This document shows positions 121 to 33,164 of a stretch of 46,716 bases of DNA, in pieces. Each line of letters opens with the position of its first letter. The first letter of the stretch is position 1. Position numbers and translations under genes: made by a program. Origin of the DNA: a phage; assembly GCA_018580065.1 (NCBI GenBank), contig GCA_018580065.1_4845.1; one strand, 5' to 3'. The notes beneath the pieces are model-generated. The model made no database searches, was not told the DNA's origin, and saw nothing but the letters and a program-made list of their open reading frames with translations.

Positions 121-149
121 TTGACACCTGTGAGGCGGTGATGTAGATT
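121..149 (+). promoter_or_regulatory. sigma70-like promoter, TTGACA-17nt-TAGATT
   Basis: TTGACA at 121-126, 17-nt spacer, TAGATT at 144-149; GAGGTGA RBS before ATG 185. Confidence 0.55.
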
Positions 150-184
150 CAATTCATCGAAACGAGATATGAATGAGGTGAGTT

Positions 185-478
185 ATGAAAATTAAAATGT
201 TGATTGCATCTGCTTTACTGGTTTCTTCTTTTCCCGTCAGCGCAACTTCAGAGATGTGCAAAAACATCGGAGAAATTGCCATGAATACCGCCGATGTTCG
301 CGACAGCGGTATCAGTAAGAATCTTGCCGAGGTGGTAGTAAAAGGCTCTGCAAAAAACAACGAATCAGCAGAAATAATCGGCCTTGCTATCGTAGAAATG
401 GTTTATGCGCGCAAGGATATGACTAAAGAGCAATTGCGTGATGTGGCTGTTGCTTTGTGCGAAAAGAATGGCATGTAA
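185..478 (+). CDS. small secreted/periplasmic protein with N-terminal signal peptide
   Basis: ORF track 97 aa; N-terminus MKIKMLIASALLVSSFPVSATS is a typical Sec signal; strong RBS. Confidence 0.6.
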   Translation: MKIKMLIASALLVSSFPVSATSEMCKNIGEIAMNTADVRDSGISKNLAEVVVKGSAKNNESAEIIGLAIVEMVYARKDMTKEQLRDVAVALCEKNGM

Positions 479-510
479 TATAAACAAGTTATTAACAGTT
501 GAGGTTAGCT

Positions 511-705
511 ATGGACGTTGTTATTTTGTTGCTTTTCGCTGGATTGGTTATATTTGCTTATCTTCTCCCGTCATTTGTGGCATTGCAAAGAAAGCACACA
601 AATGCGACCGCAATCTGTGTATTGAATATTCTTGTCGGATGGAGCTTTGTTGGGTGGGTTGCAGCACTTGTTTGGGCGTTAGTTAACAGTGGCGACAAGA
701 AATGA
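511..705 (+). CDS. superinfection-immunity-like small membrane protein (Imm_superinfect-type)
   Basis: Two TM helices with PSFVALQRKHTN...NILVGWSFVGWVAALVWAL pattern; ATG 511 preceded by GAGG (ORF track starts at TTG 499). Confidence 0.6.
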   Translation: MDVVILLLFAGLVIFAYLLPSFVALQRKHTNATAICVLNILVGWSFVGWVAALVWALVNSGDKK

Positions 706-845
706 ACGAGCAAACAAAAGCAGACCTGATTTTCTACACTGATCTGTATGTCGATGCAGGTTACGACTATGAAGAAGCCGAACGCATGGCGAAAGATTTG
801 CTTCGTGTGATTGGTGTGATTTTTGAAGAGGATAAGGTCATATGA
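702..845 (+). CDS. hypothetical small protein (47 aa), translationally coupled
   Basis: ATGA overlap with stop of upstream gene and with start of downstream gene; below ORF-track size cutoff. Confidence 0.35.
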   Translation: MNEQTKADLIFYTDLYVDAGYDYEEAERMAKDLLRVIGVIFEEDKVI

Positions 846-1060
846 AAATATCGCTAATTGATGACAAATGTGTATTAAATGCTGTAGGAAAGATGCTTCA
901 TGGAGAGCCTACATATTACATCAGAAACCTGCTTAGCTATACATATCCTGGGATTGACACGCCGTCAGTTCTTAGGAAGTTAAAATATATGGAAAAGAGA
1001 GGCTTAGTAAGAATGGTAAGAAGCCCAAACTTACTTAATAATATTAGCTGGACTAAGTAA
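842..1060 (+). CDS. hypothetical protein, AT-rich
   Basis: ORF track 72 aa; last gene of the 4-gene cassette; followed by hairpin terminator. Confidence 0.45.
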   Translation: MKISLIDDKCVLNAVGKMLHGEPTYYIRNLLSYTYPGIDTPSVLRKLKYMEKRGLVRMVRSPNLLNNISWTK

Positions 1061-1063
1061 ACA

Positions 1064-1088
1064 AAGCCCCTTTCGGGGCTTTTTCTTT
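1064..1088. terminator. bidirectional intrinsic terminator
   Basis: GCCCC-tttc-GGGGC stem-loop followed by TTTTTCTTT; sits between convergent genes. Confidence 0.7.
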
Positions 1089-1089
1089 A

Positions 1090-1806
1090 TCATGATACGG
1101 TGCACGCCGTGCTGATGATAATTTCAGGGTCGGTAGATGAGTCCGTCACTGTGACTGTATACACGCCAGCAGTTGGGCTTGCCAGTGATGCGCCAGACTC
1201 ACCACCAACAACCACACCATCTTTGCGCCAAACGTAGGTGTATGGTGCGACACCACCTTCAACAGCAACAGTTAACTGGCTGCCAGTGCTGCCAGTTGAT
1301 TGCAGGTCGGTGGTGAACTTCAGTGGCTCAAGGCTTTCGACGGTAACGCTGTCAGAATCGTAAACCTTGAACTCAAGGCTGCCAGTGACGATGTCGTTCG
1401 TGCCACCTTCGTAGCTGATGCTGGTAATGTTGCAGTACGCGGTAACGATAGTTGCACCAGTCACCTCGCGTACCCACAAAGAAGGCTGGCGACGCGCTTT
1501 CAGTTCAGTGGCGTAAATCTCAACCAGACGATGGAAGCCAAACTCATCGCTCGGGTCATTCTTGCGGATTTCCACTTCTGCGCTGATGGTCATATCAGAG
1601 CTGGTAACGAGAGTGGAAACAAAACCTCCAGCGGTATCCGCTTCAGACGTGGTAGTCTGCGGAGAGTAGTCAACACCTTTGCTGGTGGTTGAACCTAAAT
1701 ACTTCCAGTCTTCTGCATCAGGAACTGCGTCACCGCACCCTTCAGCAAGGAACAGTCGGGTCATGCGACCGACCAGAGCACCCTTATCATTTGCACAAAT
1801 AGCCAT
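1090..1806 (-). CDS. major tail (tube) protein with C-terminal Ig-like domain
   Basis: 238 aa; position downstream of connector genes; Thr/Val-rich C-terminal beta-sandwich-like segment (TYVWRKDG...VYTVTVTD). Confidence 0.55.
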   Translation of the reverse strand: MAICANDKGALVGRMTRLFLAEGCGDAVPDAEDWKYLGSTTSKGVDYSPQTTTSEADTAGGFVSTLVTSSDMTISAEVEIRKNDPSDEFGFHRLVEIYATELKARRQPSLWVREVTGATIVTAYCNITSISYEGGTNDIVTGSLEFKVYDSDSVTVESLEPLKFTTDLQSTGSTGSQLTVAVEGGVAPYTYVWRKDGVVVGGESGASLASPTAGVYTVTVTDSSTDPEIIISTACTVS

Positions 1807-1857
1807 TTCGATCTCCGAATTGTGTTAGCTGCTAACGTGGTGATTATATCACAGGTG

Positions 1858-1886
1858 TTGACAGTGATTATTTTGTGGTGTAGATT
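1858..1886 (+). promoter_or_regulatory. sigma70-like promoter, TTGACA-17nt-TAGATT
   Basis: TTGACA 1858-1863, TAGATT 1881-1886; no protein-coding ORF follows, leads into non-coding region and tRNA. Confidence 0.5.
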
Positions 1887-1894
1887 TATATGCA

Positions 1895-2326
1895 ACAGAG
1901 ATTTGTTCCCTGATTTCATTTAATTACAGCAAGTCCTTTAATTAAATTAGCGGTCGAGAGACGCCGGACGCGTAACCGGCACACAACAGGTGAGAGCATT
2001 TGGTGAATCGGCGATACTGCCCCACAAGCCCGTAGCCATCGATAGAGGTAGACAAGTGCTCTTTCCGTTGTGGTGAATGCGCAGGCTGATGCGCTAACTC
2101 GCGTGGGTTCCGGTGGTTTCACCGGGTAGACAGGGATTAACTGACCTGCCTCCGTAGATGAAAAGGCTAGCGGCCACAAGACACGGGGAATCATCAAGCC
2201 GGAAATCAGCACCGGCCACCACAACACTTAATATCCAGCATTATCGCAATCATATATAGGGGTATGTATGGGTTACGGGGCTGGATATTAAGAAAGCACG
2301 CTGGCAATGCTTAAACCAGCACTTAT
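1895..2326 (+). ncRNA. candidate structured non-coding RNA / long tRNA leader
   Basis: ~430 nt without plausible ORF between promoter and tRNA; several local hairpins (CCGGTG-gttt-CACCGG, GCGC-n8-GCGC, 10-bp inverted repeat AATATCCAGC...GCTGGATATT). Confidence 0.3.
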
Positions 2327-2403
2327 GGACGCGTAGCTTAATTGGTTAAAGCAACCGACTCATAATCGGCTGATTGAAGGTTCAAATCCGTCCGTGTCCA
2401 CCA
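2327..2403 (+). tRNA. tRNA with anticodon CAT (Met elongator-type or Ile2)
   Basis: Hand-folded cloverleaf: 7-bp acceptor stem GGACGCG/CGTGTCC, U8, D-loop with GG, anticodon loop CTCATAA, T-loop TTCAAAT, 3' ACCA; two stem mismatches. Confidence 0.7.
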
Positions 2404-2407
2404 AATT

Positions 2408-2438
2408 AAAAGCCGCTTCGTGCGGCTTTATTTATTTC
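2408..2438. terminator. intrinsic terminator after tRNA
   Basis: AAGCCGC-ttcgt-GCGGCTT hairpin followed by TATTTATTT. Confidence 0.65.
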
Positions 2439-2800
2439 ACAACCCGCAAAAGCAACTCATGCACAGGTCTTTTCTCTTCCGTCAGCATTGGCCTACCGAG
2501 CGGAGCCTGCAACTGGATGTAGTTAACGCATGAATCAATCGGATGGGTTTTGATGTATTCGATAATCTCATTGGCTTTAGCGTCAACATCAGCCACATTG
2601 TATTGTCCTTGTTTCCCAACAATGTACAACGAGAAATAGAAGTCACCACCGAGGTCGTCCATAACCTGCGTTCCACCGTTGGATTGCAGGACAATAAACT
2701 GCTCGTTTCCATCTCCGGTGTCATTCCAGAACTGCAACTGCGAAGTCCAGCCATTATACAACCCGGCATCCTGAAGATATGCGTCAACCAGTTCAAGCAT
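2432..2800 (-). CDS. tail terminator / tail completion-like protein (by position)
   Basis: ORF track 124 aa (GTG at 2806, ATG at 2800); last small gene before major tail gene. Confidence 0.4.
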   Translation of the reverse strand: MLELVDAYLQDAGLYNGWTSQLQFWNDTGDGNEQFIVLQSNGGTQVMDDLGGDFYFSLYIVGKQGQYNVADVDAKANEIIEYIKTHPIDSCVNYIQLQAPLGRPMLTEEKRPVHELLLRVVK

Positions 2801-2802
2801 AT

Positions 2803-3204
2803 TCACAGTTTCATCTCCTTCTTAATCACGCTGTCAACCAGGTCTTTTGTGCGTTGCGCCGCTTTGGTCAGAAATTGCGGCTCACCGCCCGGACTCCAAT
2901 ATGTGCCATTACCGTTGCTGCGCGGTTTGCCTGTAAGTTTTCCACTGGCGTTGTGGGCGTACAGCGCATATTTCGCAGAGTAGCCAACCTTACCAGTGAT
3001 TCGCGTTCCGCTAACTTCCACGGTATCAAACTGACTGTTAATCAGCGTTGATGTGTCAATTGGCGTTAGTGTGGCTGATTCGGTGCGGATGATGTATGTC
3101 GCCGATTTCAGAGCGCGCACAGCTTTCGTGGCGATTATCTCATCCACAATCTGCGATGTTCTTTCTACGGCCTGCCGGACGCCTCTTAATTTCGCTGGCA
3201 TCAT
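2803..3204 (-). CDS. head-tail connector protein, HK97 gp10-like (tentative)
   Basis: 133 aa; coupled overlaps with both neighbours; position within connector gene set. Confidence 0.4.
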   Translation of the reverse strand: MMPAKLRGVRQAVERTSQIVDEIIATKAVRALKSATYIIRTESATLTPIDTSTLINSQFDTVEVSGTRITGKVGYSAKYALYAHNASGKLTGKPRSNGNGTYWSPGGEPQFLTKAAQRTKDLVDSVIKKEMKL

Positions 3205-3542
3205 GTCACCAGTGCGAAATCAGGTGGCTCAGCGCGATTGAACGTATTGCCATAATTAATCACATTCAGAATCTGATTTGCGCCAGCAACCAGCGGGTCA
3301 GCTTCTGTCACCGTGCCAATCATGATGTAGTCGCCAGTCTTAGCACCAACATACTCAGTCCAGAACGTATTCTTCTGCACAATCTCATTGCCTTTCGCAT
3401 CGGTAGATACATCATCGTTAAAACCATAATCGCACATGATGCTCACTGGCTCATCAAAAGTCGGCTTGCCGTACTTGTCGGTTCCGGTCTTGTGCCAGAT
3501 AGTGCATGGCTGCGTGTAAGAAAACCGAGAGATTGAGGTCAT
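3201..3542 (-). CDS. head-tail joining / head closure protein (by position)
   Basis: 113 aa ORF in connector operon. Confidence 0.35.
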   Translation of the reverse strand: MTSISRFSYTQPCTIWHKTGTDKYGKPTFDEPVSIMCDYGFNDDVSTDAKGNEIVQKNTFWTEYVGAKTGDYIMIGTVTEADPLVAGANQILNVINYGNTFNRAEPPDFALVT

Positions 3543-4150: not shown

Positions 4151-4158
4151 CACTCTCT

Positions 4159-4551
4159 TCATTTGCACTTACTCCCACGAACAACCGCAAACCACGGTTT
4201 ACCGCTTCCGTCAGGGTCTTCCACTAAATCGCCAGTGCATCCGGCTGTATCCAGTAGCTTCATCTGATTGTACAGTGCCACCCACGGCTTGCTACCATAC
4301 GCGAATGATTGTGATGCGCCAGAAGGTGCGCTCTGCCTGGTGACGTAGCGCCCTGCGGTATTTGCGCTAATCAGGATGGAAGCCCACAGCATGATCGCAT
4401 TTTGTCGGCATTCATCATTTGGATAGTTCAGTTCAAGGCATTCGCTGATTGATGACACAAGGCACAGAATGCCAGACGCATCTGTCGTGGTGATGGTCAT
4501 CCCGCGCGACGCCATCTGACTGACCAGTTCTTCAGGTGTTGGTGCTGCCAT
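4159..4551 (-). CDS. hypothetical protein, possible head-tail connector component
   Basis: ORF track 142 aa from TTG; ATG at 4551 with GGGAG RBS. Confidence 0.35.
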   Translation of the reverse strand: MAAPTPEELVSQMASRGMTITTTDASGILCLVSSISECLELNYPNDECRQNAIMLWASILISANTAGRYVTRQSAPSGASQSFAYGSKPWVALYNQMKLLDTAGCTGDLVEDPDGSGKPWFAVVRGSKCK

Positions 4552-5289: not shown

Positions 5290-5291
5290 TA

Positions 5292-5411: not shown

Positions 5412-5455
5412 TAAATCTCCTGTTGTTTGATTAGCATGATTTTAGCATATTCCTG

Positions 5456-5484
5456 TTGACGTAGATTGATGGTGTGTTTATAGT
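5456..5484 (+). promoter_or_regulatory. sigma70-like promoter, TTGACG-17nt-TATAGT, with two copies of the GACGTAGA motif
   Basis: TTGACGTAGATT at 5456-5467, TATAGT 5479-5484, second motif copy GTGACGTAGAAA at 5487-5498. Confidence 0.6.
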
Positions 5485-5524
5485 TAGTGACGTAGAAACA
5501 ACAATAAATGTTAGAGGTGATGAA

Positions 5525-5787: not shown

Positions 5788-5979
5788 ATGGCAAACATGT
5801 ACTACTGTATGTTCCGCAATACCGTGATTGATTTTCGTGATTGCGTTGATGCAATTGGTAATGCTGAGTCTATTGACGAGTTCAGCAATTCAGAACACAA
5901 GTCTGCCGAGCGCCTGTACCATCTGGCTAATGAGTACGTCGCATATTACGAGCAATTGTTAGAAGAAAGTGGTGAATGA
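5788..5979 (+). CDS. hypothetical acidic protein
   Basis: ORF track 63 aa. Confidence 0.45.
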   Translation: MANMYYCMFRNTVIDFRDCVDAIGNAESIDEFSNSEHKSAERLYHLANEYVAYYEQLLEESGE

Positions 5980-5980
5980 T

Positions 5981-6790
5981 ATGAAAACACTAAGCAAAAT
6001 CTATTCAGACAAAGAAACACGCAACGGCATCGCTGTTAACAAAACCTATCTCGTGCCAGTGGAGCAAATCTATCTGGAGCCGGGATATAACATCCGTGAA
6101 GCAGATGAGCAGCATGTTGAATATTTTGCGCAGTGCTGGGAGTCCGGCCAGCCATTACCAGCATTAACAGTTATTCCAGACGAGAAGGGAATCCGCATTC
6201 TTGATGGTCAGCATCGCTATCTCGGCGCATTGCGTGCCATTGAGCGCGGAGCACCAATCGTTCGAATTGAGTGCAAGGATTTCACTGGCGACGAGGCGGA
6301 CAAAATCGCCTTCATGGTGTCATCAAGTCAGGGTAAGCAGCTTGACCCGTTTGAGCGCGCAAAGGCTTACACGCGACTGAAAGGCTTCGGCTGGACGAAT
6401 GAAGAAATCGCAAAAAAGGTAGGGCGCTCAGTATCTGACGTGCAAATGCATCTGTCTCTTGGTGATGTTCCGGCGGAAGTAAAAGCGCGAATCAGCGCCG
6501 GGCAAATCAGCTATGCAAATGCCGTAGCAGTAACTCGTGAGCATGGTGACGATGCGGTAAAGGTTATCGACGAGGCGGTCGAGGAAGCCAAAGCGCAAGG
6601 TAAGGATAAGGTCACTGCGAAGGTGCTGAAGTCGAAAAAGATTAAGCCAGTAGACCGTCTGATTGAGTTATTGAAGCCAGCAGACCACGTGATTCTTCCT
6701 GCTGGTCATGTGGTGGCAGAGGATGAGGAATTTATCCAGATTCCTGTTGCTGACATTCACGAGGTTATGGCAATTCTGGAGAAGATGTGA
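5981..6790 (+). CDS. ParB-like nuclease domain protein with C-terminal HTH
   Basis: ILDGQHRYLGALRA motif typical of ParB/Srx N-domain; RBS before ATG 5981. Confidence 0.65.
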   Translation: MKTLSKIYSDKETRNGIAVNKTYLVPVEQIYLEPGYNIREADEQHVEYFAQCWESGQPLPALTVIPDEKGIRILDGQHRYLGALRAIERGAPIVRIECKDFTGDEADKIAFMVSSSQGKQLDPFERAKAYTRLKGFGWTNEEIAKKVGRSVSDVQMHLSLGDVPAEVKARISAGQISYANAVAVTREHGDDAVKVIDEAVEEAKAQGKDKVTAKVLKSKKIKPVDRLIELLKPADHVILPAGHVVAEDEEFIQIPVADIHEVMAILEKM

Positions 6791-7281
6791 TGAACACAAC
6801 TAAAATAAATTGGGGTGATATTTTTCATTATGAAAATGGGGTGCTTAGGTGGAAGCACCAAAAAAGAAAAATGCTAAGTGGCTCTTTAGCTGGGACAATT
6901 GCAAATACAGGATATGTAATCATATGCGTTGATTACAAAAAATTCTTGGCTCACAGAATCATATGGGAGATGTTTAATGGACCAATCCCTGACGGGATGC
7001 AAATTGATCACATTAACCATATTCGTAATGATAACCGCATTGAAAACTTAAGGCTGGTAAGCCATATAGAGAACCATAGAAATCTTAGTAGGCAGAAAAA
7101 TAACAAATCAGGAAGAACTGGCGTTAGCTTTGACAGGAAGAGTGGGTTATGGAGGGCTTATGTATCAAAGATGCATATTGGTTTTTTTGCCAATAAAGAA
7201 GATGCAATATCCGCTAGAGAAAAAGCTGAAACTTCAACTGGGTATCACGAGAATCACGGAGTAAAAAGTGAACGTTTATGA
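6787..7281 (+). CDS. HNH homing endonuclease with AP2-like DNA-binding domain
   Basis: IDHINHIRNDNRIENLRLVSHIENHRN HNH motif; C-terminal GVSFDRKSGLWRAYV AP2-like segment. Confidence 0.8.
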   Translation: MMNTTKINWGDIFHYENGVLRWKHQKRKMLSGSLAGTIANTGYVIICVDYKKFLAHRIIWEMFNGPIPDGMQIDHINHIRNDNRIENLRLVSHIENHRNLSRQKNNKSGRTGVSFDRKSGLWRAYVSKMHIGFFANKEDAISAREKAETSTGYHENHGVKSERL

Positions 7282-7441
7282 TTTTCTCGTCAAGCAACTC
7301 CGCGCCAAGTTGCCTGACATTGACCAGATGGCAATTGATGCGGCGATTCAATATTACAAGCGCAATCAGAGCGCAAAGAAGGGTGGTATTTTTGAAGAAT
7401 GCCTGAAGGTTGCAAAACAGCACATGATTAAGGTGAAGTGA
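7268..7441 (+). CDS. hypothetical small protein (57 aa, GTG start)
   Basis: Fills gap between HNH and next gene; helical basic sequence; start uncertain. Confidence 0.25.
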   Translation: MNVYDFLVKQLRAKLPDIDQMAIDAAIQYYKRNQSAKKGGIFEECLKVAKQHMIKVK

Positions 7442-12563: not shown

Positions 12564-13052
12564 TCATACTCTTGCTTCTTGCGTTTGGACTTCCCCATGA
12601 TGACCTCTTACATTGCGAAGAAGTGAATTAAACAGATTGCCGACGTTAACCTCCTGCTCACTCCATGAATAACGCCATATCTTCTTGTGGTGGTCATAGC
12701 TTCGCGTTACATCGCCGTTATGAAACATGATGCGAATGCGGCTTTTCACGATGCGGTAATCAATACCAGTGGCGGCGCTAATCTCTTTCACCTCTGCGCC
12801 AGCGTTATCAAGCATGTGGCACTTAATCGCATCATCAATACCTGCCGCATCATCAGATATAAAATATTTATACTGCCACTTCCCGCCACGAATCACTGAC
12901 TTCTCGCGGCGAATAAAGCCAAGCGCAAGCATCTCATGCAAACGATGCGTTGTGGTGCTTGAATGCTTTCCTCTGCAATGCTCCTCAATGTATGCACGCG
13001 TTGCGCCGGGATGCATCATAATCACGCGCATGATTTGCGATTTATAATCCAT
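12564..13052 (-). CDS. putative DNA-binding protein (winged-helix-like)
   Basis: ORF track 162 aa; basic helical N-terminal region. Confidence 0.4.
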   Translation of the reverse strand: MDYKSQIMRVIMMHPGATRAYIEEHCRGKHSSTTTHRLHEMLALGFIRREKSVIRGGKWQYKYFISDDAAGIDDAIKCHMLDNAGAEVKEISAATGIDYRIVKSRIRIMFHNGDVTRSYDHHKKIWRYSWSEQEVNVGNLFNSLLRNVRGHHGEVQTQEARV

Positions 13053-13739: not shown

Positions 13740-13767
13740 TTCCACATCACCTTTTACGTTGTGGTAC

Positions 13768-13814
13768 AATCTACGTCAATAAGTATTGACTATGTGACGT
13801 AGAAACGTCAAGAT
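13768..13814. promoter_or_regulatory. divergent promoter/operator region with inverted GACGTAGA motif pair
   Basis: AATCTACGTCAA (13768-13779) and TGACGTAGAAA (13795-13805) form a dyad; TTGACT -35 at 13786-13791. Confidence 0.45.
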
Positions 13815-14032: not shown

Positions 14033-14613
14033 AAAAATGGAAATATCTGAAAGGCTGTGAGGATGATTTTGCTGGCCATGACACGGCTTATCTTGTAGTT
14101 AAGTCAGGAAGTACTGGTGAGATTTTCTATCTAAGCATAGATTATGCTGGTCGCATTGAAGTGATTGAGGGTTGCGGGGATGTTGTTATTGCATACCGCG
14201 AGCCAATTACCGACGAGCAAGACCTCAATGATTGCATTGGTGCGCCGGAAGCAGATTTGAATCGAGGTGGCTTTATTCCCAACACCACATTTGTTGGCGG
14301 TTTCCTGCCTGAAGGATATCCGACCTTTGGTCACACCAATTGCCGATGCAAGTCAGTTAAAGTTGGCGAGACTCACATCGACGGGAAATGCCATGAGGCG
14401 CAACTTGGAAACAAATACCTGCACGAAATTAAGCCTGGTGTATTTGTTGACGTGTACGATGTGCTCATGGCGTGGAATGTCACAAATCCAGCGCTGCAGC
14501 ATCTGATTAAAAAGGCACTGCAGCCAGGCGAGCGCGGACACAAATCACGCGAACAGGATTTACAGGACATCATTGATAGCGCAATTCGCGCAAAAGAACT
14601 GGAGATTAAATAA
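14029..14613 (+). CDS. hypothetical protein
   Basis: ORF track 194 aa, coupled to neighbours. Confidence 0.5.
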   Translation: MKKWKYLKGCEDDFAGHDTAYLVVKSGSTGEIFYLSIDYAGRIEVIEGCGDVVIAYREPITDEQDLNDCIGAPEADLNRGGFIPNTTFVGGFLPEGYPTFGHTNCRCKSVKVGETHIDGKCHEAQLGNKYLHEIKPGVFVDVYDVLMAWNVTNPALQHLIKKALQPGERGHKSREQDLQDIIDSAIRAKELEIK

Positions 14614-14921
14614 TGGCATTCTGCGACATCACCATCGCGCAACGAAACGCGAACTTTACCAACATTGCTGACACATCAGCGCAGCTGGTATCACTGAATA
14701 GCGACGGCAGTGCGGTGCTGAAAATCGGCACCGAAACAGCGCAATTCATTGTGCAGAATCTGTCACAGGCGAATGCAAAGCAGGTGCTGATTAGCACTGG
14801 CAGCGTGCTGTTTCTGGCTGGTAATTACAATGCGCCGAACCTTGAATGTTCACTGGTGCGCATCGTTGAAGCTGCGGTTGAGGAATCTGTTGATGAGCCA
14901 ACAACATTGCCAGCAGAGTGA
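14613..14921 (+). CDS. hypothetical protein
   Basis: ORF track 102 aa. Confidence 0.45.
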   Translation: MAFCDITIAQRNANFTNIADTSAQLVSLNSDGSAVLKIGTETAQFIVQNLSQANAKQVLISTGSVLFLAGNYNAPNLECSLVRIVEAAVEESVDEPTTLPAE

Positions 14922-16509: not shown

Positions 16510-16553
16510 CCTGCCTCCTGCTCAAATAATAACTAATTCTATCACAATGGCTA

Positions 16554-16584
16554 TTGACGTAGATTGAGCGGTGGTGCATAGTAT
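16554..16584 (+). promoter_or_regulatory. sigma70-like promoter with GACGTAGA dyad
   Basis: TTGACGTAGATT 16554-16565, -10 candidates CATAGT/TAGTAT 16577-16584, inverted copy ATCTACATCA 16583-16592. Confidence 0.5.
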
Positions 16585-16614
16585 CTACATCAAGTGATGA
16601 GTGAGGTGATGAAG

Positions 16615-18504: not shown

Positions 18505-18533
18505 CAAGCCCTCACTTAGAGGGCTTTTTGTTA
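18505..18533. terminator. bidirectional intrinsic terminator
   Basis: AAGCCCTC-actta-GAGGGCTT with T-run. Confidence 0.7.
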
Positions 18534-19433
18534 TTGCTCTGGTTTTCCTCCGAGCTTTCTAATAATTTCTGCAGCAACGCACGGATCAACATTAAAAAAT
18601 TCAGTCGCCCCATCGAAACCTGACAACCCAGCATTTAAGTCCTTTAGCTTTCTATGCGCAGCGCCTTCCGCTTTCCTTGCTTTGTAATAGCTTTCGAATG
18701 AGAACTGACACAACAAAGATATAGAAAGACCTGATTTTTTAGTTAGTTGCTGAATCCTTAGAGGAACGTTATTTGATAACCCTATCTTTATCATTCCATT
18801 TGCTTCCAACAAATAAACCATAGTCTTTTTGAATGGGTTTCTTCCTGCGCATTTTGCACACCCGTGCCCCTTGGCGTGATGGCCAGCAAACTGGCGAAAA
18901 CTGCCATGAATAGGGCATATTATTTCAACCATGCTATTCATGCCACTAAAAACTACCTCATCATATGAATATTTCCCGCCATGGGCCTCTTTGCATCTTG
19001 CTATGAAGGATTCTGTATCCATGCCGCCCTTTCCACTGCAAACCCTGCACCCAATATTCCCTCTCAAGTGATCTCTTGCTATTTGCTGGAATTCACCATG
19101 TTTTTTGCACCTTATGGTTATCATTGACAGCATTCCAGAGTATTTGGTTGGTGAATAATCATAAATATCATGGTTTTTACTGGGAATCATATCCATAAAC
19201 TCATCATGACTGTACCCGTTATGCATTCCCCTGCCGGGCCTGCACTTTCTGCATCCGTTGCAACCGTTGAGGTGATCATTTGGCGTCTGTTTAAATAACA
19301 CATCATGCTTAATACATCTGATTATTACTGGCGATTTCCTTTTGATGTATTTAGTTTCTGAATAGTCAAATTTATCGCCGTGGATTAACTTAGCGCGTGA
19401 AATGAAATCTTCTGTGGTAGGTCTTTTTGCCAT
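18531..19433 (-). CDS. T5orf172-domain (GIY-YIG-related) protein with three N-terminal Cys-rich repeats; putative homing endonuclease
   Basis: C-terminal VYLLEANGMIKIGLSNN...GATEFFNV; three ~45-aa repeats each ending GCxxC; ATG 19433 (ORF track starts TTG 19517). Confidence 0.6.
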   Translation of the reverse strand: MAKRPTTEDFISRAKLIHGDKFDYSETKYIKRKSPVIIRCIKHDVLFKQTPNDHLNGCNGCRKCRPGRGMHNGYSHDEFMDMIPSKNHDIYDYSPTKYSGMLSMITIRCKKHGEFQQIARDHLRGNIGCRVCSGKGGMDTESFIARCKEAHGGKYSYDEVVFSGMNSMVEIICPIHGSFRQFAGHHAKGHGCAKCAGRNPFKKTMVYLLEANGMIKIGLSNNVPLRIQQLTKKSGLSISLLCQFSFESYYKARKAEGAAHRKLKDLNAGLSGFDGATEFFNVDPCVAAEIIRKLGGKPEQ

Positions 19434-19528
19434 TATTAACCCCGTAGCAGGTTCGTAGATTGAGGATTGCAGCAGGGTGTCTACGTTCACCTTTTCGTCT
19501 GGCCGGACTAGCTGCAATTGAGATTATA

Positions 19529-20485
19529 TCACTTTGCCTTGTGAGCTGAAAGCCACTTATCTCTCGCTGATATCATCCTGTCAAGAGAAGATTCAAGCAT
19601 GATCACATTACCATTTTCATCTAATAGGCATGGCGTTTGACCACAATGGCACCGAAATCTATTTCCGTCCTTGCTGTAAAACTCCTCCACCTGTTCTGGC
19701 GAGTACGCCTTAGAGTGTCTGATGGCGTGAGTTTGTCTGGTTGTTGGTAATAGCGCCGACACCCAAAATAGGGCACTATTTAGCCCCAAAATAATCTTTG
19801 ATTCCTGAACTTCGTCAGACTGCGACTTGCGTAAAATGCCCGTAAGCTCGGTTTGGGCAATGTTTTTTGCTCGCGATTCACTTACACCAACGCGCTTAAT
19901 GATGTCTGATTCAATATCTCTCGGATTAGAACCAACAGCGATAGCATTCATGATCACCTGAGACAAATCATTACGTGCCGCGTCTCCAATTCCAACCCAA
20001 TCGCTGTAAGTGGAGGCATTGGCAATAGACAGGCGCTGCAAATATGGCTCAGAGTAAATAATGTCTGCAATTGAACGGCGCTCAGCATAGAGTGGAGACA
20101 TGGCTGCCAGTTGCTGTTGCGCCTCAACCGTACCAGCTGAATAGGCGTCAGAGACATAAATTGACATCCAGAACTGACCAGCATCCATTGGCTGAGTATC
20201 ATCAAGCAGTATTTCATCAATTAGCTGTTGCAGCGCCTCATTAAATTGAGCTGCCCTAGCGGCTGAAAAATCATACCTGTAACCATAGGCATCAATGGAG
20301 TTAATTGCGGCAACTGGAATTGACCTGAATAAGTCTATGACTGACGATTTAAGGCGCTTGTATCGCGCCTCAATCTGTTTGTTTGCCTTGCTTAGTCTCC
20401 TGTTAGCGCCAACAGGGTCTGTTTTGCTGGTTGGTATCTTCGGGCCAACCAGTCTGGCGCTAACCTTAAAGATTTTGATTTTCAT
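19529..20485 (-). CDS. head morphogenesis protein (SPP1 gp7 / Mu F-like, by position)
   Basis: Immediately downstream of portal gene; ATG 20485 overlaps portal stop (ORF track from 20557). Confidence 0.55.
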
Positions 20486-21878: not shown

Positions 21879-21906
21879 ATAAAAAAACCCATCACGTTGG
21901 ATGGGA
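21879..21906 (-). terminator. terminator-like hairpin directly upstream of portal start
   Basis: Minus-strand CCCATC-caacgt-GATGGG followed by T7 run. Confidence 0.5.
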
Positions 21907-21919
21907 TTATAGCATGGTA

Positions 21920-23302: not shown

Positions 23303-23509
23303 TCACCCTCTCAAAAAATCATTCTTGCAGCAGATACCTTTATATCCGCGCTTCTCTTGCAGGTTAACGAAAACATCATCAATAACACGCAGCAGAAAAT
23401 CCTCGTCAATATCATACCGACGACAAATCACATCATCAGGAACACCAGCTCGTGCCAGGGAATAAACCTGCTCTTTTTCCTCCTGTGTGAATCCTGCATA
23501 GCTGCGCAT
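23303..23509 (-). CDS. hypothetical protein, first gene of minus-strand early operon
   Basis: ATG 23509 downstream of minus-strand promoter (ORF track starts upstream at 23569). Confidence 0.45.
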   Translation of the reverse strand: MRSYAGFTQEEKEQVYSLARAGVPDDVICRRYDIDEDFLLRVIDDVFVNLQEKRGYKGICCKNDFLRG

Positions 23510-23530
23510 AGTGATATCTCCGATAAACCT

Positions 23531-23640
23531 GATGTAGATTATACTATGCGCTCGGTGTAGATTGGTCAAGTGTGGTGATGCAGATTTATCAACAACAATA
23601 ATAAATGTTGACGTAGATATGTTGGTGACGTAGAATCATC
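23531..23640. promoter_or_regulatory. divergent promoter region with five copies of the GAYGTAGAWW motif
   Basis: Minus promoter TTGACC-17-TAGTAT (plus coords 23541-23569); plus promoter TTGACG-17-TAGAAT (23608-23636); motif copies at 23531, 23554, 23577, 23610, 23627. Confidence 0.6.
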
Positions 23641-23670
23641 TTATCGAAAAGAGATTAAGGAACAAGAGAA

Positions 23671-26021: not shown

Positions 26022-26094
26022 AGATAAAACCTATCAATATTCCGCTATTTTTCCGTTATTCGATATTGTAACAGATTCTACACCATAGCGTTAA

Positions 26095-27912: not shown

Positions 27913-27942
27913 ACCTTCACCCTCGTTTGTTTCGATGAGTTC

Positions 27943-27971
27943 AATCTACATCAGTTGTGATTCTACGTCAA
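27943..27971 (-). promoter_or_regulatory. sigma70-like early promoter, TTGACG-17nt-TAGATT
   Basis: Minus strand TTGACGTAGAAT...GATGTAGATT; both elements are copies of the recurring motif. Confidence 0.6.
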
Positions 27972-28414: not shown

Positions 28415-28581
28415 AAAGCTATTGAAAATAAAAGAAAAATTACCCCTCTGGTAAGCGTTATACTCCTGTTGGAGTGTGCTGTCAACCAGCCGCACGGAAC
28501 AAAGATCATCCCCGTGTAAATGTGTTTGACTAGCTTCCTTTTTCCCTTTATTCTTTTTTTTATCAAACAAGAAGTGGAGAA

Positions 28582-28809
28582 ATGGCGATGAGCAAAGAAT
28601 ACCGATTTGGCAGTGCGATTGGCGAGGTCTGGGATTTTGTGCGTGATATGTTGGTTGGTGATCGTAAGGAGTTTAAATTTGATGAGTTTACCGCTAATGA
28701 AGGATTAAGGGGATTCAGAGTGAACCTTCATAAGGTTGCAGTGCGGAACGGATGGATGTTTAAAACGCGAGCTAAGGAGGGTGGCTTGTGGGTAAAACGG
28801 ATTAAGTGA
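28582..28809 (+). CDS. hypothetical protein
   Basis: ORF track 75 aa; TTGACT-17-TATTCT promoter-like sequence and GGAG RBS upstream. Confidence 0.5.
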   Translation: MAMSKEYRFGSAIGEVWDFVRDMLVGDRKEFKFDEFTANEGLRGFRVNLHKVAVRNGWMFKTRAKEGGLWVKRIK

Positions 28810-28820
28810 GGTGTTTGGAT

Positions 28821-29243
28821 ATGAAAAGGTACTACATTGAGGCAATTGGGGCTGATGGTAAAAAGTTATATGCCAGCGGTAGATGTGGTTTTCTGCATGA
28901 TTTTACCTATGCGAAGTTTTTCAAAACAATAGAGGAGGCTGAGGGGTATATGGCGTGGCGGAAGCCTCATCTCCCATGTGAAATAAAATGCAAGGAGCAA
29001 AGGGTAAAAAAACGGTCTGCGTCTCAGGTGGAACAAAAAACGACAATGGAGGGAGAAGCTAGAAACTTCGTCTACCGCCTTGGTTTGGATAAGGGAAAGC
29101 ATTTTGTGTTTGATGATTTTAAGTTGATAAAGAGCATTGATCAGTTGAGAACTTCCCTTGACAGGGTGGGTAAGAAGCTGCAAAAAAAATTCAGTGTCAA
29201 TATGGTTGCGCGTAATACCGCTTATGTGGTGAGGGTTAAATGA
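28821..29243 (+). CDS. hypothetical protein
   Basis: ATG 28821 with GTGAGGTG RBS (ORF track from 28806). Confidence 0.45.
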   Translation: MKRYYIEAIGADGKKLYASGRCGFLHDFTYAKFFKTIEEAEGYMAWRKPHLPCEIKCKEQRVKKRSASQVEQKTTMEGEARNFVYRLGLDKGKHFVFDDFKLIKSIDQLRTSLDRVGKKLQKKFSVNMVARNTAYVVRVK

Positions 29244-31573
29244 TGATTGGTTATGAAGATTACCGCAAATGTGGCTTCCCTATTATTGGAATCCATGCGA
29301 TGGATATCGACCGAAATTGCACATGCGGTGATCCAGAGTGCAATGCTGCCGGTAAGCATCCGGTTATGAGCAACTGGCAGCTTGGAGTTATATGGGCTGA
29401 TGACCAGATTGAAAATATGGCTGAATATGGTCAGTTGCAGTCATTCGGTGTCCTTGTGAATGGTTATCTGGTCGTTGATATTGACCCACGCAACGGAGGT
29501 AATGATGGATATGAATCGCTTTGTGATGCCTTAGACGTAGAGCTTGCTGACGAAGCTGGTTTTACGGTCAAGACTGGTGGTGGTGGTCGCCACATCTATT
29601 ACAAACTTCCTGAAGGAATAAAGCTGCGCTCTCATGACAGAAGATTTAATGGTATTGACTTTAAATCATCTGGTTTTGTTGTTGGATGTGGTTCTTTTCA
29701 TAAAACTGGAAACTTTTATGAGGCCGAGCATGGATCCCCTTCAGAGATAACTGAATGTCCATCTGAACTTATTGAGCTTTTGTTGCGTCCTGAGAGAACG
29801 GAAGACGAGGTTTTCACGCTTGATAGTAAAAATTACAGCATTGCCGAAATGGAGGATATGCTCAAATACATCAAAGATGGTGATGAGTATGACCCATGGC
29901 TTCATGTAGGTATGGCTATCCACGAAGCTACAGAAGGCAATGGTTTTGAGCTTTGGGATAGATGGTCATCGCAGTTCAGCAAATACAGAGCTGAAGAGAT
30001 GGACGCAAAATGGCATTCCTTTGGAAAGGACGGCGTTAGCGAAAAGATAACAGAAGCAACGCTGGTTTATCTCGCGCAAGAGGGGGGGTGGGTAAGGCAA
30101 GTAACTTTTGAGGCTACGCCAGAGGAAATTGAGAAACTTGAGTCTTTCGAACGAGAGATGGCAATGGGTGTTGGTGAATGCCCTGTAGAGTACAAAAGTG
30201 TTGATGTCCGTTATCCGCCTGGATTTGTTGGTCGCCTTGCGGCGTGGATTAATAAGAACTGTGCAGAGAAGCGAGAGAATATTGCAGCACTTGCCGCATT
30301 GCATGCCGCATCCATGATTTGCGGTGCGTCATCTGATATTTACCTTACAAACAGGAAGGCTTTACCAAACCTTTTTGCTGTTGGTATCGCTGGTTCAGGT
30401 TCAGGTAAGGGTGATGTCCTTGCTGCGCTACAAAAGATAATTGATTGCTCAGGATTGAGTAAGACAGTTGCCGGTAAGATACGCTCAGAGCGTGCGATAT
30501 ATGAAGGTCTTTGCGCTAACCAGATGTTTAATATCATCATGGATGAGATTGGGATAAAACTTGGGAGTGTTGTTGGTCAGAAAGTAAGCGAGTACAACAT
30601 GGCAACCGCTGGTGCGATCATGGAGGCTTACACGTCAGAAGTTCTTTATTGTGACCAGCGGGTTACTGAGGATTTCATTAAGTCTTTTGAAAAAAGAAAG
30701 GCTATGCTGTTGATGGCTATTGAGGAAAATGAAATACAGGCAGACCCCGTTGACATTAAGTGTCAGTTTGATGATGTGATAAACAGAATTGACGGAGCTA
30801 TAAGGAATCCATTTTTTTCAATCTTTGGTGTATCTACTGATGATCAGTTTAAGCGCCTTATTACAGAAGAAAACATTAAGTCAGGCCTTATGGGTCGCGC
30901 AATGATTATGCAGGAGTTACAGGAGATTGCTGATGAAAACGAAAACGTAAACTACTGTGATCTACCTATGGATATGCAACTGACCATAAAAACAATAATA
31001 AATGGCGGAACGGCTGGGCACAAAAACTGGACAGACTCAATAATCAGTCAAAAAGAAAGACGGATTATAAAAGCCACGCCTGAAGTTTCTCAGCTCGCCA
31101 AGGAGTTCTTCTCATGGATTAAAACCGTTGCAAGAAAGCATGTAGAAAATGGTACTGGTTATCACCCATTGATAAACAGATGCGCCGTGAAGGTGGCAAA
31201 GATTGCTGGAATTCTCGCGTGCGATACTGGCGTCATAACCATGGAGCACTTGAGATATGCGGTAGCATTAACAATTAAATCAACAAGCGATCTGATGATG
31301 CGTGCCGACAGTATCGCCGGAGCGAAGTCTAAAGCTATGGAAGAGAGAATTGAAGGCATTTTCTCCATGGTTAAAGAATATGTGAAGCGAGGAATGACCA
31401 AAACAGCAATGGTTAGAGGGGTGGCAAAAGAAGGTGGTTATAAACGTGCTGATGTCGAGAGGTGCGTAGAGAAGTTGTTATCAGATGGTGTTATTTGCAT
31501 TGATGAAAATGCAAAAAGAACATCTCACAACGTAATAATTTACAAATTAACAAATGATGAGGTTGAGATATGA
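29240..31573 (+). CDS. bifunctional DNA primase-polymerase with helicase-like C-terminal domain
   Basis: Prim-pol motifs VVDIDPRNGG and GGGRHIYY, PriCT-like DPWLHVGMAIHEA, Walker A GIAGSGSGKG. Confidence 0.8.
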   Translation: MMIGYEDYRKCGFPIIGIHAMDIDRNCTCGDPECNAAGKHPVMSNWQLGVIWADDQIENMAEYGQLQSFGVLVNGYLVVDIDPRNGGNDGYESLCDALDVELADEAGFTVKTGGGGRHIYYKLPEGIKLRSHDRRFNGIDFKSSGFVVGCGSFHKTGNFYEAEHGSPSEITECPSELIELLLRPERTEDEVFTLDSKNYSIAEMEDMLKYIKDGDEYDPWLHVGMAIHEATEGNGFELWDRWSSQFSKYRAEEMDAKWHSFGKDGVSEKITEATLVYLAQEGGWVRQVTFEATPEEIEKLESFEREMAMGVGECPVEYKSVDVRYPPGFVGRLAAWINKNCAEKRENIAALAALHAASMICGASSDIYLTNRKALPNLFAVGIAGSGSGKGDVLAALQKIIDCSGLSKTVAGKIRSERAIYEGLCANQMFNIIMDEIGIKLGSVVGQKVSEYNMATAGAIMEAYTSEVLYCDQRVTEDFIKSFEKRKAMLLMAIEENEIQADPVDIKCQFDDVINRIDGAIRNPFFSIFGVSTDDQFKRLITEENIKSGLMGRAMIMQELQEIADENENVNYCDLPMDMQLTIKTIINGGTAGHKNWTDSIISQKERRIIKATPEVSQLAKEFFSWIKTVARKHVENGTGYHPLINRCAVKVAKIAGILACDTGVITMEHLRYAVALTIKSTSDLMMRADSIAGAKSKAMEERIEGIFSMVKEYVKRGMTKTAMVRGVAKEGGYKRADVERCVEKLLSDGVICIDENAKRTSHNVIIYKLTNDEVEI

Positions 31574-31992
31574 TTAATTACAAGTATCTGGTGATGAGAG
31601 GTTTGTATGACTATTTTGAGTCAGAAAATCCTGAGCGCGCACATGATAACGCAATATCCATGATGACAGGAAAACACCTGATGGAAGTTTACTACTGGAA
31701 AATGCCAGTATTCCGCTGCAATATGGGTATCTGCATTGATGATGACGTACTGTTTTGTCGAATACAATATGAAAACAATGTAGGCATAGTGACAGCATCG
31801 TACAGGGATGTCGCAAGAAAATCCGGGAAATGGCATCCAAGCGAAGTATTTGCTGGTGACGCACTATTTAATTTCTGCAAGGCGTTTGGTGTTTTGTATG
31901 AGGATGTAAGCAAAGAGTATAGCGGAAGGCGTGAGAAAGATAGCTTGAGTTCCAAAGGCGTGACTAACTACAAGGATAAAAACCATGTGTAA
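31570..31992 (+). CDS. hypothetical protein
   Basis: ORF track 140 aa. Confidence 0.45.
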   Translation: MINYKYLVMRGLYDYFESENPERAHDNAISMMTGKHLMEVYYWKMPVFRCNMGICIDDDVLFCRIQYENNVGIVTASYRDVARKSGKWHPSEVFAGDALFNFCKAFGVLYEDVSKEYSGRREKDSLSSKGVTNYKDKNHV

Positions 31993-32188
31993 CACAATTA
32001 GAACAATATCAGGCGAACTTTGTCGCTCAGAAGGTTCATGGCATTTCAGGCCGCATGGTTATTCGACATGGTTTTTCTGGAGCGGGATTAACAAAGTATG
32101 GATTCGCTCTAATTACCACGTGCTTGATGATTACTGGCATAGATTTTGTGTTGGTTATGTTGATATTTCAAAATTGATGATTAAGTGA
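31985..32188 (+). CDS. hypothetical Trp-rich protein
   Basis: ORF track 67 aa. Confidence 0.3.
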   Translation: MCNTIRTISGELCRSEGSWHFRPHGYSTWFFWSGINKVWIRSNYHVLDDYWHRFCVGYVDISKLMIK

Positions 32189-32198
32189 GGGCAAGGAA

Positions 32199-32450
32199 AT
32201 GGATGTGAAAGATAAGGTTTTGTACGTGATGAGAAAGAGAAAATCCATTGAGGAGGAGACCCTTGGGATTTGTCGAAAGTTCTCCGTTGCCCCGTGGAGT
32301 TTACGTCTATCGATGGTGAATGAATTTCCTGATGATGAATGGACGGCGGCAAAGTTACGGAAGGTTCTGGTTTCTCTTTGTAAGGAGAGCCTTGTATCAA
32401 AGGATTTAAATAACAGTCGCATTGGTAATTCAGTTTGGATTCTGGAGTAA
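32199..32450 (+). CDS. hypothetical protein
   Basis: ORF track 83 aa. Confidence 0.45.
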   Translation: MDVKDKVLYVMRKRKSIEEETLGICRKFSVAPWSLRLSMVNEFPDDEWTAAKLRKVLVSLCKESLVSKDLNNSRIGNSVWILE

Positions 32451-32455
32451 AACTG

Positions 32456-32761
32456 ATGGCTAACTTGCAACTTGCCGTCAAAGGCGAATACTTCGACGCC
32501 ATGATTCGTGGAGAGAAAACGGAAGAGTATCGCCTTTTTAATGACTACTGGAAGAAACGCCTTATTAACTTTAAAGATAGCGGACAGATTGGAAGGAAGT
32601 ACGAAAGGTTAATTATCACAAAAGGATATCCAAAGAAGGACGATAAATCCAGGCGCATTGACATCCCATATAATGGATGGACGGTTAAAACCATCACGCA
32701 CCTGCACTTCGGTCCTGACCCAGTGGAAGTGTTCGCAATAAAAGTTAACATCAAAGCATAA
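32456..32761 (+). CDS. ASCH/PUA-like domain protein (tentative)
   Basis: YFDAMIRGEKTEEYRL resembles ASCH N-terminal motif; ATG 32456 with GGAG RBS. Confidence 0.4.
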   Translation: MANLQLAVKGEYFDAMIRGEKTEEYRLFNDYWKKRLINFKDSGQIGRKYERLIITKGYPKKDDKSRRIDIPYNGWTVKTITHLHFGPDPVEVFAIKVNIKA

Positions 32762-32763
32762 CA

Positions 32764-32792
32764 AAAAGCCCGCAAACGCGGGATTTATTATT
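32764..32792. terminator. bidirectional intrinsic terminator
   Basis: AGCCCGC-aaac-GCGGGAT followed by TTATTATTT. Confidence 0.65.
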
Positions 32793-33030
32793 TAACAATC
32801 CATTTTGTAACGGCTGGCCTTAAATCTTCCTTTCTGAAAACGCCACCAGTAAGTCTCTCGGCATCAATTGCTGCTGTAGCGCTAATTCTTCCTCTTGACA
32901 CCCACTGATTGACAGCCTGTTTTGACACACCAAGAAACCTTGCCAGTTGTGATTGCCCTCCAACATAATCAATCAGCTCTGACAGCTTCGTCTGTTCCAT
33001 TTCTCTTATCTGTTCTGCGATGCTTTTCAT
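32788..33030 (-). CDS. XRE-family (Cro/CI-type) HTH transcriptional regulator
   Basis: SQLARFLGVSKQAVNQWVSRG helix-turn-helix; lone minus-strand gene with its own TTGACG-17-CATTAT promoter. Confidence 0.6.
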   Translation of the reverse strand: MKSIAEQIREMEQTKLSELIDYVGGQSQLARFLGVSKQAVNQWVSRGRISATAAIDAERLTGGVFRKEDLRPAVTKWIVK

Positions 33031-33059
33031 GTGTTTACCTCTGCTATCTGTATGCAGCA

Positions 33060-33088
33060 ATAATGAACTCAAAAAAAATTTTCGTCAA
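33060..33088 (-). promoter_or_regulatory. sigma70-like promoter for the HTH regulator
   Basis: Minus-strand TTGACG (plus 33083-33088), 17-nt spacer, CATTAT (plus 33060-33065). Confidence 0.5.
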
Positions 33089-33164
33089 GGTATTGTGTTT
33101 ACCATCACGTTGACGTATCTTTAAGTCACACCAGCGATATGCTGAGTTAAATCGAGGGGACACT

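Follow-up and report, generated by a model that had tools for sequence, protein, structure and literature searches.

We describe an 11-bp word, TGAYGTAGA(T/a)(T/a), in the 46,716-nucleotide phage genome of assembly GCA_018580065.1 (contig GCA_018580065.1_4845.1; this whole stretch is referred to below as the window), where its sequence context indicates that it is a cis-regulatory word in the core of the sigma70-dependent promoters that drive small-gene cassettes. The original prediction had noticed a recurring motif of this kind in front of operons and had offered two readings of it, an unusually fixed promoter consensus and an operator read by some regulator of the phage. The promoter association stands, with copies lying exactly 17-18 nt from conserved partner hexamers; as to which of the two it is, we favour, with a probability of about 0.45, an operator for a phage-encoded global regulator that would switch the cassette promoters together.

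The exact 9-mer TGACGTAGA occurs eight times in the window against 0.15 copies expected, a number that was reached in 0 of 100 shuffles, which bears out the claim that the motif recurs. With either pyrimidine allowed at the fourth position, TGAYGTAGA occurs 12 times, with first bases at 139, 5457, 5488, 13795, 16555, 23530, 23609 and 23626 on the plus strand and at 13778, 16592, 27953 and 27970 on the minus strand. All 12 copies are intergenic in a genome of which 8.3% is intergenic DNA (binomial p = 1e-13), confirming that the motif is mainly non-coding. An independent test, which compared the hexamers TAGAWT and TTGACN between intergenic and coding DNA and so involved no selection of the motif, showed that TG[AG][CT]G precedes 11 of the 13 intergenic TAGAWT hexamers versus none of the 17 coding ones, and that TTGACN continues as GTAGA in 5 of 15 intergenic cases versus 0 of 94 coding cases. 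When 84 distinct sites, drawn from nine genomes, are combined in a sequence logo, the result is an 11-mer, TGAYGTAGA(T>a)(T>a), with nearly information-free flanks and without dyad symmetry.

Besides these 12 there are five weaker copies: TGGTGTAGATT (1876-1886, +), CGGTGTAGATT (23553-23563, +), TGATGCAGATT (23576-23586, +), TGGTGTAGAAT (26075-26085, -) and TGATGTTGATT (93-103, +). Among the sites that had been listed previously, those at 1876, 23553, 23576 and 26075 are real variants, but those at 19454 and 33110 are not copies: the former (TTCGTAGATTGA) lies inside the coding sequence 18531..19517, and the latter (TTGACGTATCTT) serves another promoter, in the Cro-like control region, as its -35. 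Inverted pairs with 16-18 nt spacing had been proposed at two loci; measured between the 9-mers, the pair at 13770-13778/13795-13803 does have a 16-nt gap, but the gap at 16555-16563/16584-16592 is 20 nt. No other repeated element was found in the genome, nor was any recurrent palindrome family or separate palindromic parS, the intergenic palindromes being essentially all terminators.

The placement of the word was classified from 66 pooled sites in six genomes, and hexamer conservation was read from alignments of up to nine genomes. Copies take four positions relative to the sigma70 hexamers: they coincide with the -35, coincide with the -10, lie inside the spacer or follow just after the -10. 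The left half of the 11-mer provides the -35 (TTGACG) and the right half the -10 (TAGAWT), and comparison of the first two classes confirms the earlier claim that the same motif serves as -35 in some promoters and as -10 in others. In class I, TTGACGTAGAWT is the -35 and the -10 follows exactly 17 nt downstream (5456-5484 and 16554-16582); in class II, (G/C)TGAYGTAGATT is the -10 and TTGACA/G lies 17-18 nt upstream (121-149 and 1858-1886). Tandem promoters combine the two, both hexamers coming from copies 17 nt apart (23608-23636, and 27943-27971 on the minus strand). Class III has the copy within the spacer of TTGACT-N17-CAAGAT (13786-13814), and in class IV it directly follows the -10, as at 5488-5498 in the promoter of the unit that encodes a ParB-like protein, an arrangement present in all nine genomes. 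Two further promoters, that of the portal unit on the minus strand (23541-23569) and the plus-strand one at 16554-16582, have a reverse copy directly beside their -10.

The seven class I, II, tandem and III promoters named above and the portal-unit promoter make up eight sigma70-type promoters with a -35/-10 spacing of 17 +/- 1 bp, each upstream of and co-oriented with a gene, and their partner hexamers are conserved in Klebsiella phages. The motif is not a canonical extended -10, as its TG lies at -17/-16 instead of -15/-14. The 11-mer therefore marks -35-dependent promoters, those of the small-gene cassettes and of a tRNA-Met unit, and not the presumed late promoters described below.

The word is not restricted to the window. 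It is among the top 9-mers found de novo in the Klebsiella phages KpV2811 (portal protein 71% identical) and VLCpiS13c (61%) and in Skatevirus PHA46_2, and eight relatives each carry 8-14 copies at orthologous intergenic positions. No copy is present in a temperate Erwinia phage whose head and tail genes are homologous, and a scan of IMG/VR with TTGACGTAGATTGA showed no other enriched lineage, returning the same phage group and matches near chance level. In the deepest comparison, between the window and KpV2811, the motif bases that lie outside the hexamers (TAGAWT in copies that act as the -35, TGAYG in copies that act as the -10, and all of a copy that lies in a spacer) were identical at 30 of 34 positions (88%), versus 18 of 51 (35%) for the other spacer bases (Fisher p = 1.4e-6), and all four mismatches fell at degenerate W/Y positions. 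In CHRF_10034 and KE12, a 16-bp motif core is exactly inverted relative to SB28 between the 9-bp arms AGTATTGAC and GTCAATACT, so that the word is retained inside the same spacer in either orientation; the regions concerned, orthologous to 13782-13814, show a natural small DNA inversion within a divergent promoter region. Some phages have lost the rightward cassette and nonetheless keep copies of the 23530 and 23553 type, which there overlap the leftward portal-unit promoter only.

Judged from these alignments, selection is acting on the whole 11-mer, bases that sigma70 is not known to read included. Because the non-hexamer bases are conserved, the spacer core has been inverted yet kept, and the 23530- and 23553-type copies persist, it appears that something reads the full 11-mer; and since a single sigma70 domain could not read it at both the -35 and the -10, we argue for a reader of the whole word. 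Taken together, the spacer copies, the copies after the -10, the exact inversion and the non-hexamer conservation lead us to lean toward an extra reader.

A second kind of promoter element, the extended -10 TGnTAnAAT, occurs without a -35, and 8 of its 12 occurrences are intergenic (p = 8e-7). The minus-strand sites (101-109, 1843-1851, 5439-5447, 16536-16546, 19523-19531, 21906-21914, 26065-26073 and 39931-39939) all lie in front of structural or lysis genes, with one further copy on the plus strand at 13762-13770; the genes that follow include those for tail, major-tail, head-tail, head-morphogenesis, portal, packaging, tail-fibre and lysis functions. Three of the elements share an identical 11-mer context, GTGATATAATC or GATGATATAATC. 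They constitute a second promoter class and are probably the late promoters. Several of them stand back to back with a motif promoter, and the motif then covers the place of their -35, as in the lysis promoter (AATCTACGTCAA-N7-TGTGATAGAAT) and in the head-tail promoter (AATCTACGTCAA-N8-TGCTAAAAT). At four loci (13762-13778, 23530-23549, 93-109 and 39922-39939) the extended -10 overlaps the TAGATT of an opposite-strand motif by 3 bp, giving composites of TGnTAnAAT and CTACRYCA that are conserved in nine genomes and whose overlapping opposite-strand -10 elements would make them, on sequence, bidirectional promoters.

If the 11-mer is an operator for a phage regulator, a separate sequence-specific protein would bind it in all its core-promoter positions (-35, spacer, -10 or +1) and on either strand. 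Such a binder would co-regulate all cassette promoters, in the simplest case by shutting them off once it had been made from one of them, and transcription of the structural and lysis genes would be left to the extended -10 promoters (TGnTAnAAT), which do not depend on a -35.

The best candidate readers, to judge by their sequences, are a ParB/KorB-like protein and a MarR-like protein. The ParB-like protein (5969..6790, +; translation probably begins at the ATG at 5981), which was not among the candidates of the original prediction, matches the Pfam families HTH_ParB (2.6e-11) and KorB (7e-6), and its N-terminal domain and helix-turn-helix (HTH) align with PDB chains of Spo0J, ParB, Noc and KorB. 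It is the most conserved non-structural DNA-binding protein, with 82% identity in the Klebsiella phages and at least 99% in 99 records; all members of the motif-bearing clade have the same HTH, from which that of motif-less homologs differs, about 190 genomes have both the motif and the protein, and its own promoter bears a conserved double copy of the motif. A more specific version of the operator reading, which we regard as unlikely, is that this ParB/KorB-family protein, possibly as a CTP-dependent clamp, would be a global transcriptional silencer loading at the asymmetric 11-mer embedded in every cassette promoter. If true, it would be the phage counterpart of the KorB regulon of RK2, and the 11-mer would be the first ParB-family site both to lack a palindrome and to double as the -35 and -10 of the promoters under its control. 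The ParB proteins of ParB-activated thymine dioxygenase systems are without a DNA-binding domain, and such a system does not apply here, as the window's ParB-like protein has one (PMC13229309).

The MarR-like protein (12564..13052, -) had been proposed as a regulator previously and may be the reader: it has two winged-helix-like modules, it is present in every virulent relative, and the second module contains an invariant basic patch, but its overall identity in the Klebsiella branch is only 34-36%. The other earlier candidate, the XRE/Cro-like protein (32788..33072), does not hold up as the regulator: it is part of the replication module, seven of the eight relatives with the motif lack it, and only VLCpiS13c has a full-length homolog; neither the window's Cro-like module nor that of VLCpiS13c contains a copy of the motif, and the control region at 33077-33121 consists of sequences unlike the motif that are conserved with VLCpiS13c. 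A lineage-specific 68-aa protein (23303..23509), encoded next to a region with five copies, is predicted to form an HTH-like fold of three helices, for which domains of the NarL/GerE/DosR type are the nearest matches in structure; the fold is plausible, but we set the protein aside as a binder, as these matches are weak (E>0.1) and the protein is net acidic. A 57-aa protein (7268..7441), which is always kept behind the double-copy promoter, was likewise rejected, being a generic three-helix bundle in its predicted structure with no DNA-binding match.

Several observations weigh against an operator for a phage regulator, or against the proteins proposed to read it. Most copies are co-directed with the following cassette and phased with partner hexamers, as plain promoter elements would be, and for the reverse copies beside a -10 a reading as the core of a bidirectional promoter is equally open. 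The spacing from copy to copy varies (17, 24-25 and 29-31 nt). ParB/KorB and MarR proteins usually bind palindromes, and the asymmetric 11-mer lacks the 13-16 bp palindrome of a ParB/KorB-type operator. Furthermore, the ParB unit is wholly deleted in at least nine isolates from three continents that keep about 14 motif copies, and the turnover of the motif in ParB-negative phages is no greater than in ParB-positive ones. The deletion weakens the ParB-like protein as an obligatory binder; because it arose within a genus, however, the undecayed motif says little, and with similar turnover in both groups the case is not decisive. Two promoter-embedded motif copies occur at the ParB operon of an unrelated myovirus, ECO1230-10, but this association is absent in its relative KA2-1, and there are no motif copies at the ParB operon of EhrS_59 or Kp4864-1, unrelated phages that also have ParB homologs. 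Finally, the reader is deduced from its sites, and the proteins named above are candidates only.

The lineage that has lost the ParB unit includes SB28 (14400-14800), CHRF_10034, KE12, ST65, ST44, ST46, KE08, KE13 and CHRF_10023.1. There the double-motif promoter drives a remnant of about 40 aa, which takes in the 44 C-terminal residues of ParB, followed by the conserved 57-aa gene, and Vi II-E1, of the same genus as SB28, retains the full unit. ECO1230-10 has, for its part, an over-represented palindrome with the core CAATSATTG, the full form ACAATSATTGT being found at four sites and the 9-bp core at more (positions 4357, 14570, 17692 and 19914 of L131, and 14201 and 17469 of L132). One ACAATSATTGT lies 80 nt upstream of the ParB-like gene of ECO1230-10 and, from its sequence, may be the parS-like site of that protein.

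The main rival of the operator reading, which we consider quite possible while placing it below even odds, is a pure sigma70 promoter consensus in tandem and bidirectional use with no extra factor. TAGAWT would then be the -10, TGAYG an unusual upstream extension, and copies 17 nt upstream of another -10 would double as its -35, an arrangement of tandem and bidirectional promoters that would suit a genome of alternating short transcription units. The exact phasing of 17-18 nt with TTGACA/TTGACG or TATAGT/CATAGT partners, conserved at deep divergence, speaks for it, as do the orientation of copies toward their cassette and the fact that the Y position is always C where a copy acts as the -35. 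The conserved composite cores with their 3-bp overlap and the persistence of the motif in ParB-less phages point the same way, and in the annotation of ASO78B some of the sites appear, from a pattern scan, simply as sigma70 promoters of the generic kind. What it does not supply is any known reason for a conserved TGAYG at -17..-13, whose TG stands two bases further upstream than that of a canonical extended -10, where TGn is at -15..-13. Equally unexplained are the conserved TAGAWT within spacers, the five rightward copies (23530-23636) in front of one tiny cassette, two of which are kept without that cassette, and the tolerance of the spacer copy of promoter 13786-13814 to inversion. Were there indeed no factor, the conserved TGAYG would point to an unrecognised sigma70 promoter determinant.

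It is improbable, in our estimate, that the 11-mer is a specificity element by which a modified host RNA polymerase, carrying a protein like MotA/AsiA of T4 or a small sigma-like phage protein, is recruited or redirected, which would define a phage-specific temporal promoter class. An asymmetric, directional word that in class I is centred near -30 with a sigma70-type -10 downstream would fit such an element, and the predicted HTH-like 68-aa protein is encoded beside the five-copy control region. The position of the word relative to the -10 is not fixed, however, with copies also at the -10, in the spacer and at +1, and canonical -35 hexamers are conserved at the class II promoters. The acidic 68-aa protein with its fold matches at E>0.1 is a poor candidate for this role, and among roughly 20 proteins scanned there was no match to the sigma, MotA or AsiA families. 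A T4 MotA-box middle promoter proper, which requires a fixed box near -30, was rejected on the same variability of position, and a promoter for a phage-encoded RNA polymerase was rejected because neither the window's set of open reading frames nor the annotated relatives include an RNA polymerase gene. Still less credible is a recombination linker, a word kept at cassette borders for cassette exchange with a secondary promoter role. Homology between phages often breaks at or beside a copy, the cassette content downstream is highly variable, and a segment of untranslated region (UTR) beside one copy recurs upstream of another (5497-5512 and 23591-23609). Against this, an identity of 11 bp is very short for homologous exchange, the sigma70 phasing and the restriction to core promoters would go unexplained, and the breakpoints may merely reflect conserved promoters beside variable cargo.

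At the individual loci, the U1 cassette (genes 185..1060) has the class II promoter TTGACA-N17-TAGATT at 121..149 (+), in which the copy TGATGTAGATT (139-149) is the -10; in the Klebsiella phages TTGACA and the motif are kept and the spacer is scrambled. Upstream of it is the composite core at 93..109, where the weak copy TGATGTTGATT (93-103, +) overlaps the extended -10 TGATATAAT (101-109, -), which faces the tail genes across the circular junction (the gene for TAC starts at 46697). Another class II promoter, TTGACA-N17-TAGATT at 1858..1886 (+), contains the weak copy TGGTGTAGATT and is directed at the tRNA-Met gene (2327-2403, +), which is followed by a terminator at 2409-2429. This tRNA unit, with its own promoter, is antisense to the surrounding structural genes, and the tRNA at this spot varies, being tRNA-Met in the window and Arg and Ser in ASO78B.

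The promoter of the ParB unit (U3; 5456..5498, +) consists of the class I copy TTGACGTAGATT (5456-5467) as the -35, TATAGT (5479-5484) as the -10 and the class IV copy TGACGTAGAAA (5488-5498, +), which overlaps +1. The double copy and the -10 are conserved in nine of nine genomes, ParB-less ones included, and the extended -10 of the divergent head-tail unit, TGCTAAAAT, lies at 5439-5447 (-). The 5′ UTR of the ParB unit, AACAACAATAAATGTTAGAGGTGATG (5497..5522, +), is 100% identical in the Klebsiella phages and is conserved far above its surroundings; a near copy, AACAACAATAATAAATGTT (23591-23609), lies upstream of the motif copy at 23609. The three class II promoters with the copies 139, 23626 and 27953 share another 5′ UTR box, (T)CATCGAAA(C), which follows them after about 10-20 nt, at about 155-170, 23643-23655 and 27925-27940 (-).

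The control region between the leftward unit U4 and the rightward unit U5 (13762..13814, both strands) combines the extended -10 TGGTACAAT (13762-13770, +), overlapping the reverse copy 13768-13778 (-), with the promoter TTGACT-N17-CAAGAT (13786-13814), whose spacer holds the class III copy TGACGTAGAAA (13795-13805); the palindromic arms are AGTATTGAC (13782-13790) and GTCAA (13807-13811). Between the leftward lysis genes and the rightward U7 cassette (16536..16592, both strands) are the lysis extended -10 TGTGATAGAAT (16536-16546, -), the class I promoter TTGACG-N17-CATAGT (16554-16582, +) with the copy 16555-16565, and a reverse copy (16582-16592, -) that abuts the CATAGT -10. The region between the leftward portal unit U8 and the rightward U9 (23530..23636) has five plus-strand copies, at 23530, 23553 (weak), 23576 (weak), 23609 and 23626; the tandem pair at 23608-23636 (+) forms TTGACG-N17-TAGAAT, and the minus-strand promoter TTGACC-N17-TAGTAT (23569..23541) holds the 23553 copy in its spacer and has the 23530 copy just past its -10. 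The open reading frame 23303..23569 reaches into this region, and a PHROG match places its real start near 23509.

In front of the packaging genes (26065..26085, -), the weak copy TGGTGTAGAAT (26075-26085) is directly upstream of the extended -10 TGTTACAAT (26065-26073). The U10 cassette has the tandem-copy promoter TTGACGTAGAAT-N6-TGATGTAGATT (27943..27971, -), equal to TTGACG-N17-TAGATT, and at the tail-fibre gene a composite core (39922..39939) joins the extended -10 TGATACAAT (39931-39939, -) to the overlapping degenerate reverse copy TTGATGTATATT (39922-39933, +).

The window represents the whole genome, closed into a circle, as its end-to-start junction aligns contiguously with relatives. 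The phage is a virulent siphovirus of the Skatevirus/Macdonaldcampvirus type, belonging to the group around the Salmonella phages Vi II-E1, LPST10, STGO-35-1 and Skate, with an identity to them of about 90% across 60-70% of its length. NCBI taxonomy assigns the group to no family and spreads it across the genera Caminolopintovirus, Skatevirus and Macdonaldcampvirus; the paper that completed the BASEL collection treats it as Skatevirus and relatives and names the Klebsiella branch Roufvirus. The genome is a mosaic of short, direction-alternating transcription units with bidirectional terminators at their borders. Structural and lysis genes lie on the minus strand and are broken up by small-gene cassettes; their head and tail homologs in the temperate Erwinia relative form one contiguous block with no interruption. 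Directly behind the ParB-like gene an HNH endonuclease gene is inserted (6787-7281; Pfam HNH_3, 3e-22), and the gene at this position differs among relatives, being a cytosine methylase in KpV2811. The replication/recombination module at 28582-37743 (primase, Cro-like, Sak4-like, Gam-like, SSB and helicase) is of the type found in Klebsiella phage VLCpiS13c, with 76-91% protein identity, whereas the closest Salmonella relatives have an unrelated one; judged by sequence, this motif-free module has clearly come in by mosaic replacement.

Phages of the Skatevirus, Macdonaldcampvirus and Roufvirus group and its relatives are common, have been widely put forward for biocontrol of Salmonella, E. coli and Klebsiella, and are now represented in the BASEL reference collection. 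The gene regulation of the group is undescribed: apart from the pattern-scan annotation of ASO78B, the papers we found are genome announcements or biocontrol studies, no transcript mapping for these phages was found in the literature, and no description of the motif in a phage context was found in the searchable literature, which did not cover the 2008 genome paper on Vi II-E1. The cis-element is solid and lineage-wide and makes this regulation directly testable. It gives a handle on a temporal programme with apparently two promoter classes, motif and extended -10, and provides a defined bait for finding the regulator; ParB-positive Vi II-E1 and ParB-negative SB28 form a natural one-genus pair for studying transcription control by a ParB-family protein in a lytic phage.

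We know of no convincing match to the motif among the known alternative sigma consensus sequences or E. coli regulator sites, a comparison that was not a database test. Like the early promoters of T5 and T7, the promoters described here are near-identical sigma70 promoters with 17-bp spacing, of the kind that head early clusters in virulent phages, but here one 11-mer serves as -35, -10, spacer or +1 element, and its bases beyond the hexamers are strongly selected. T4 middle promoters resemble them in having an asymmetric word of 9-11 bp in the -35 region, a sigma70-type -10 and one temporal class; they differ in that here the position is variable and the word includes a good -35, and the scanned proteins included no homolog of MotA or AsiA. 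Warman et al. reportedly described, in 2021, symmetric bidirectional promoters whose -10 elements overlap, and the four loci where TAGATT overlaps an opposite TAnAAT by 3 bp are similar, with predicted divergent starts about 16-18 bp apart; only a minority of copies are so arranged, however, and the starts here are predicted. The Omega repressor of pSM19035 is a small ribbon-helix-helix global regulator that reads 7-bp heptads in either orientation, and its sites share with the 11-mer a short asymmetric sequence, direct and inverted, inside several promoters of one element. Omega needs contiguous heptad arrays, whereas the copies here are single or 17-31 bp apart, and no ribbon-helix-helix protein was identified in the window phage.

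The closest parallel is KorB of the IncP plasmid RK2, a ParB-family CTP-switch protein with 12 operators that overlap or adjoin promoters (PMC11790492). Both systems would have an element-encoded ParB-family HTH protein and around a dozen short sites, mostly at promoters, on a replicon of about 47-60 kb, and in both the promoter of the regulator's own operon is among the sites, from which joint control of several units would follow. The differences are that the KorB operator is a 13-bp palindrome, whereas the phage 11-mer is asymmetric and its binding putative, that phages without the ParB-like gene keep their sites, and that no KorA- or TrbA-like partner was identified. By analogy, then, the 11-mer system would work most like the RK2 KorB regulon, yet with an asymmetric word in place of the palindrome that defines a KorB operator.

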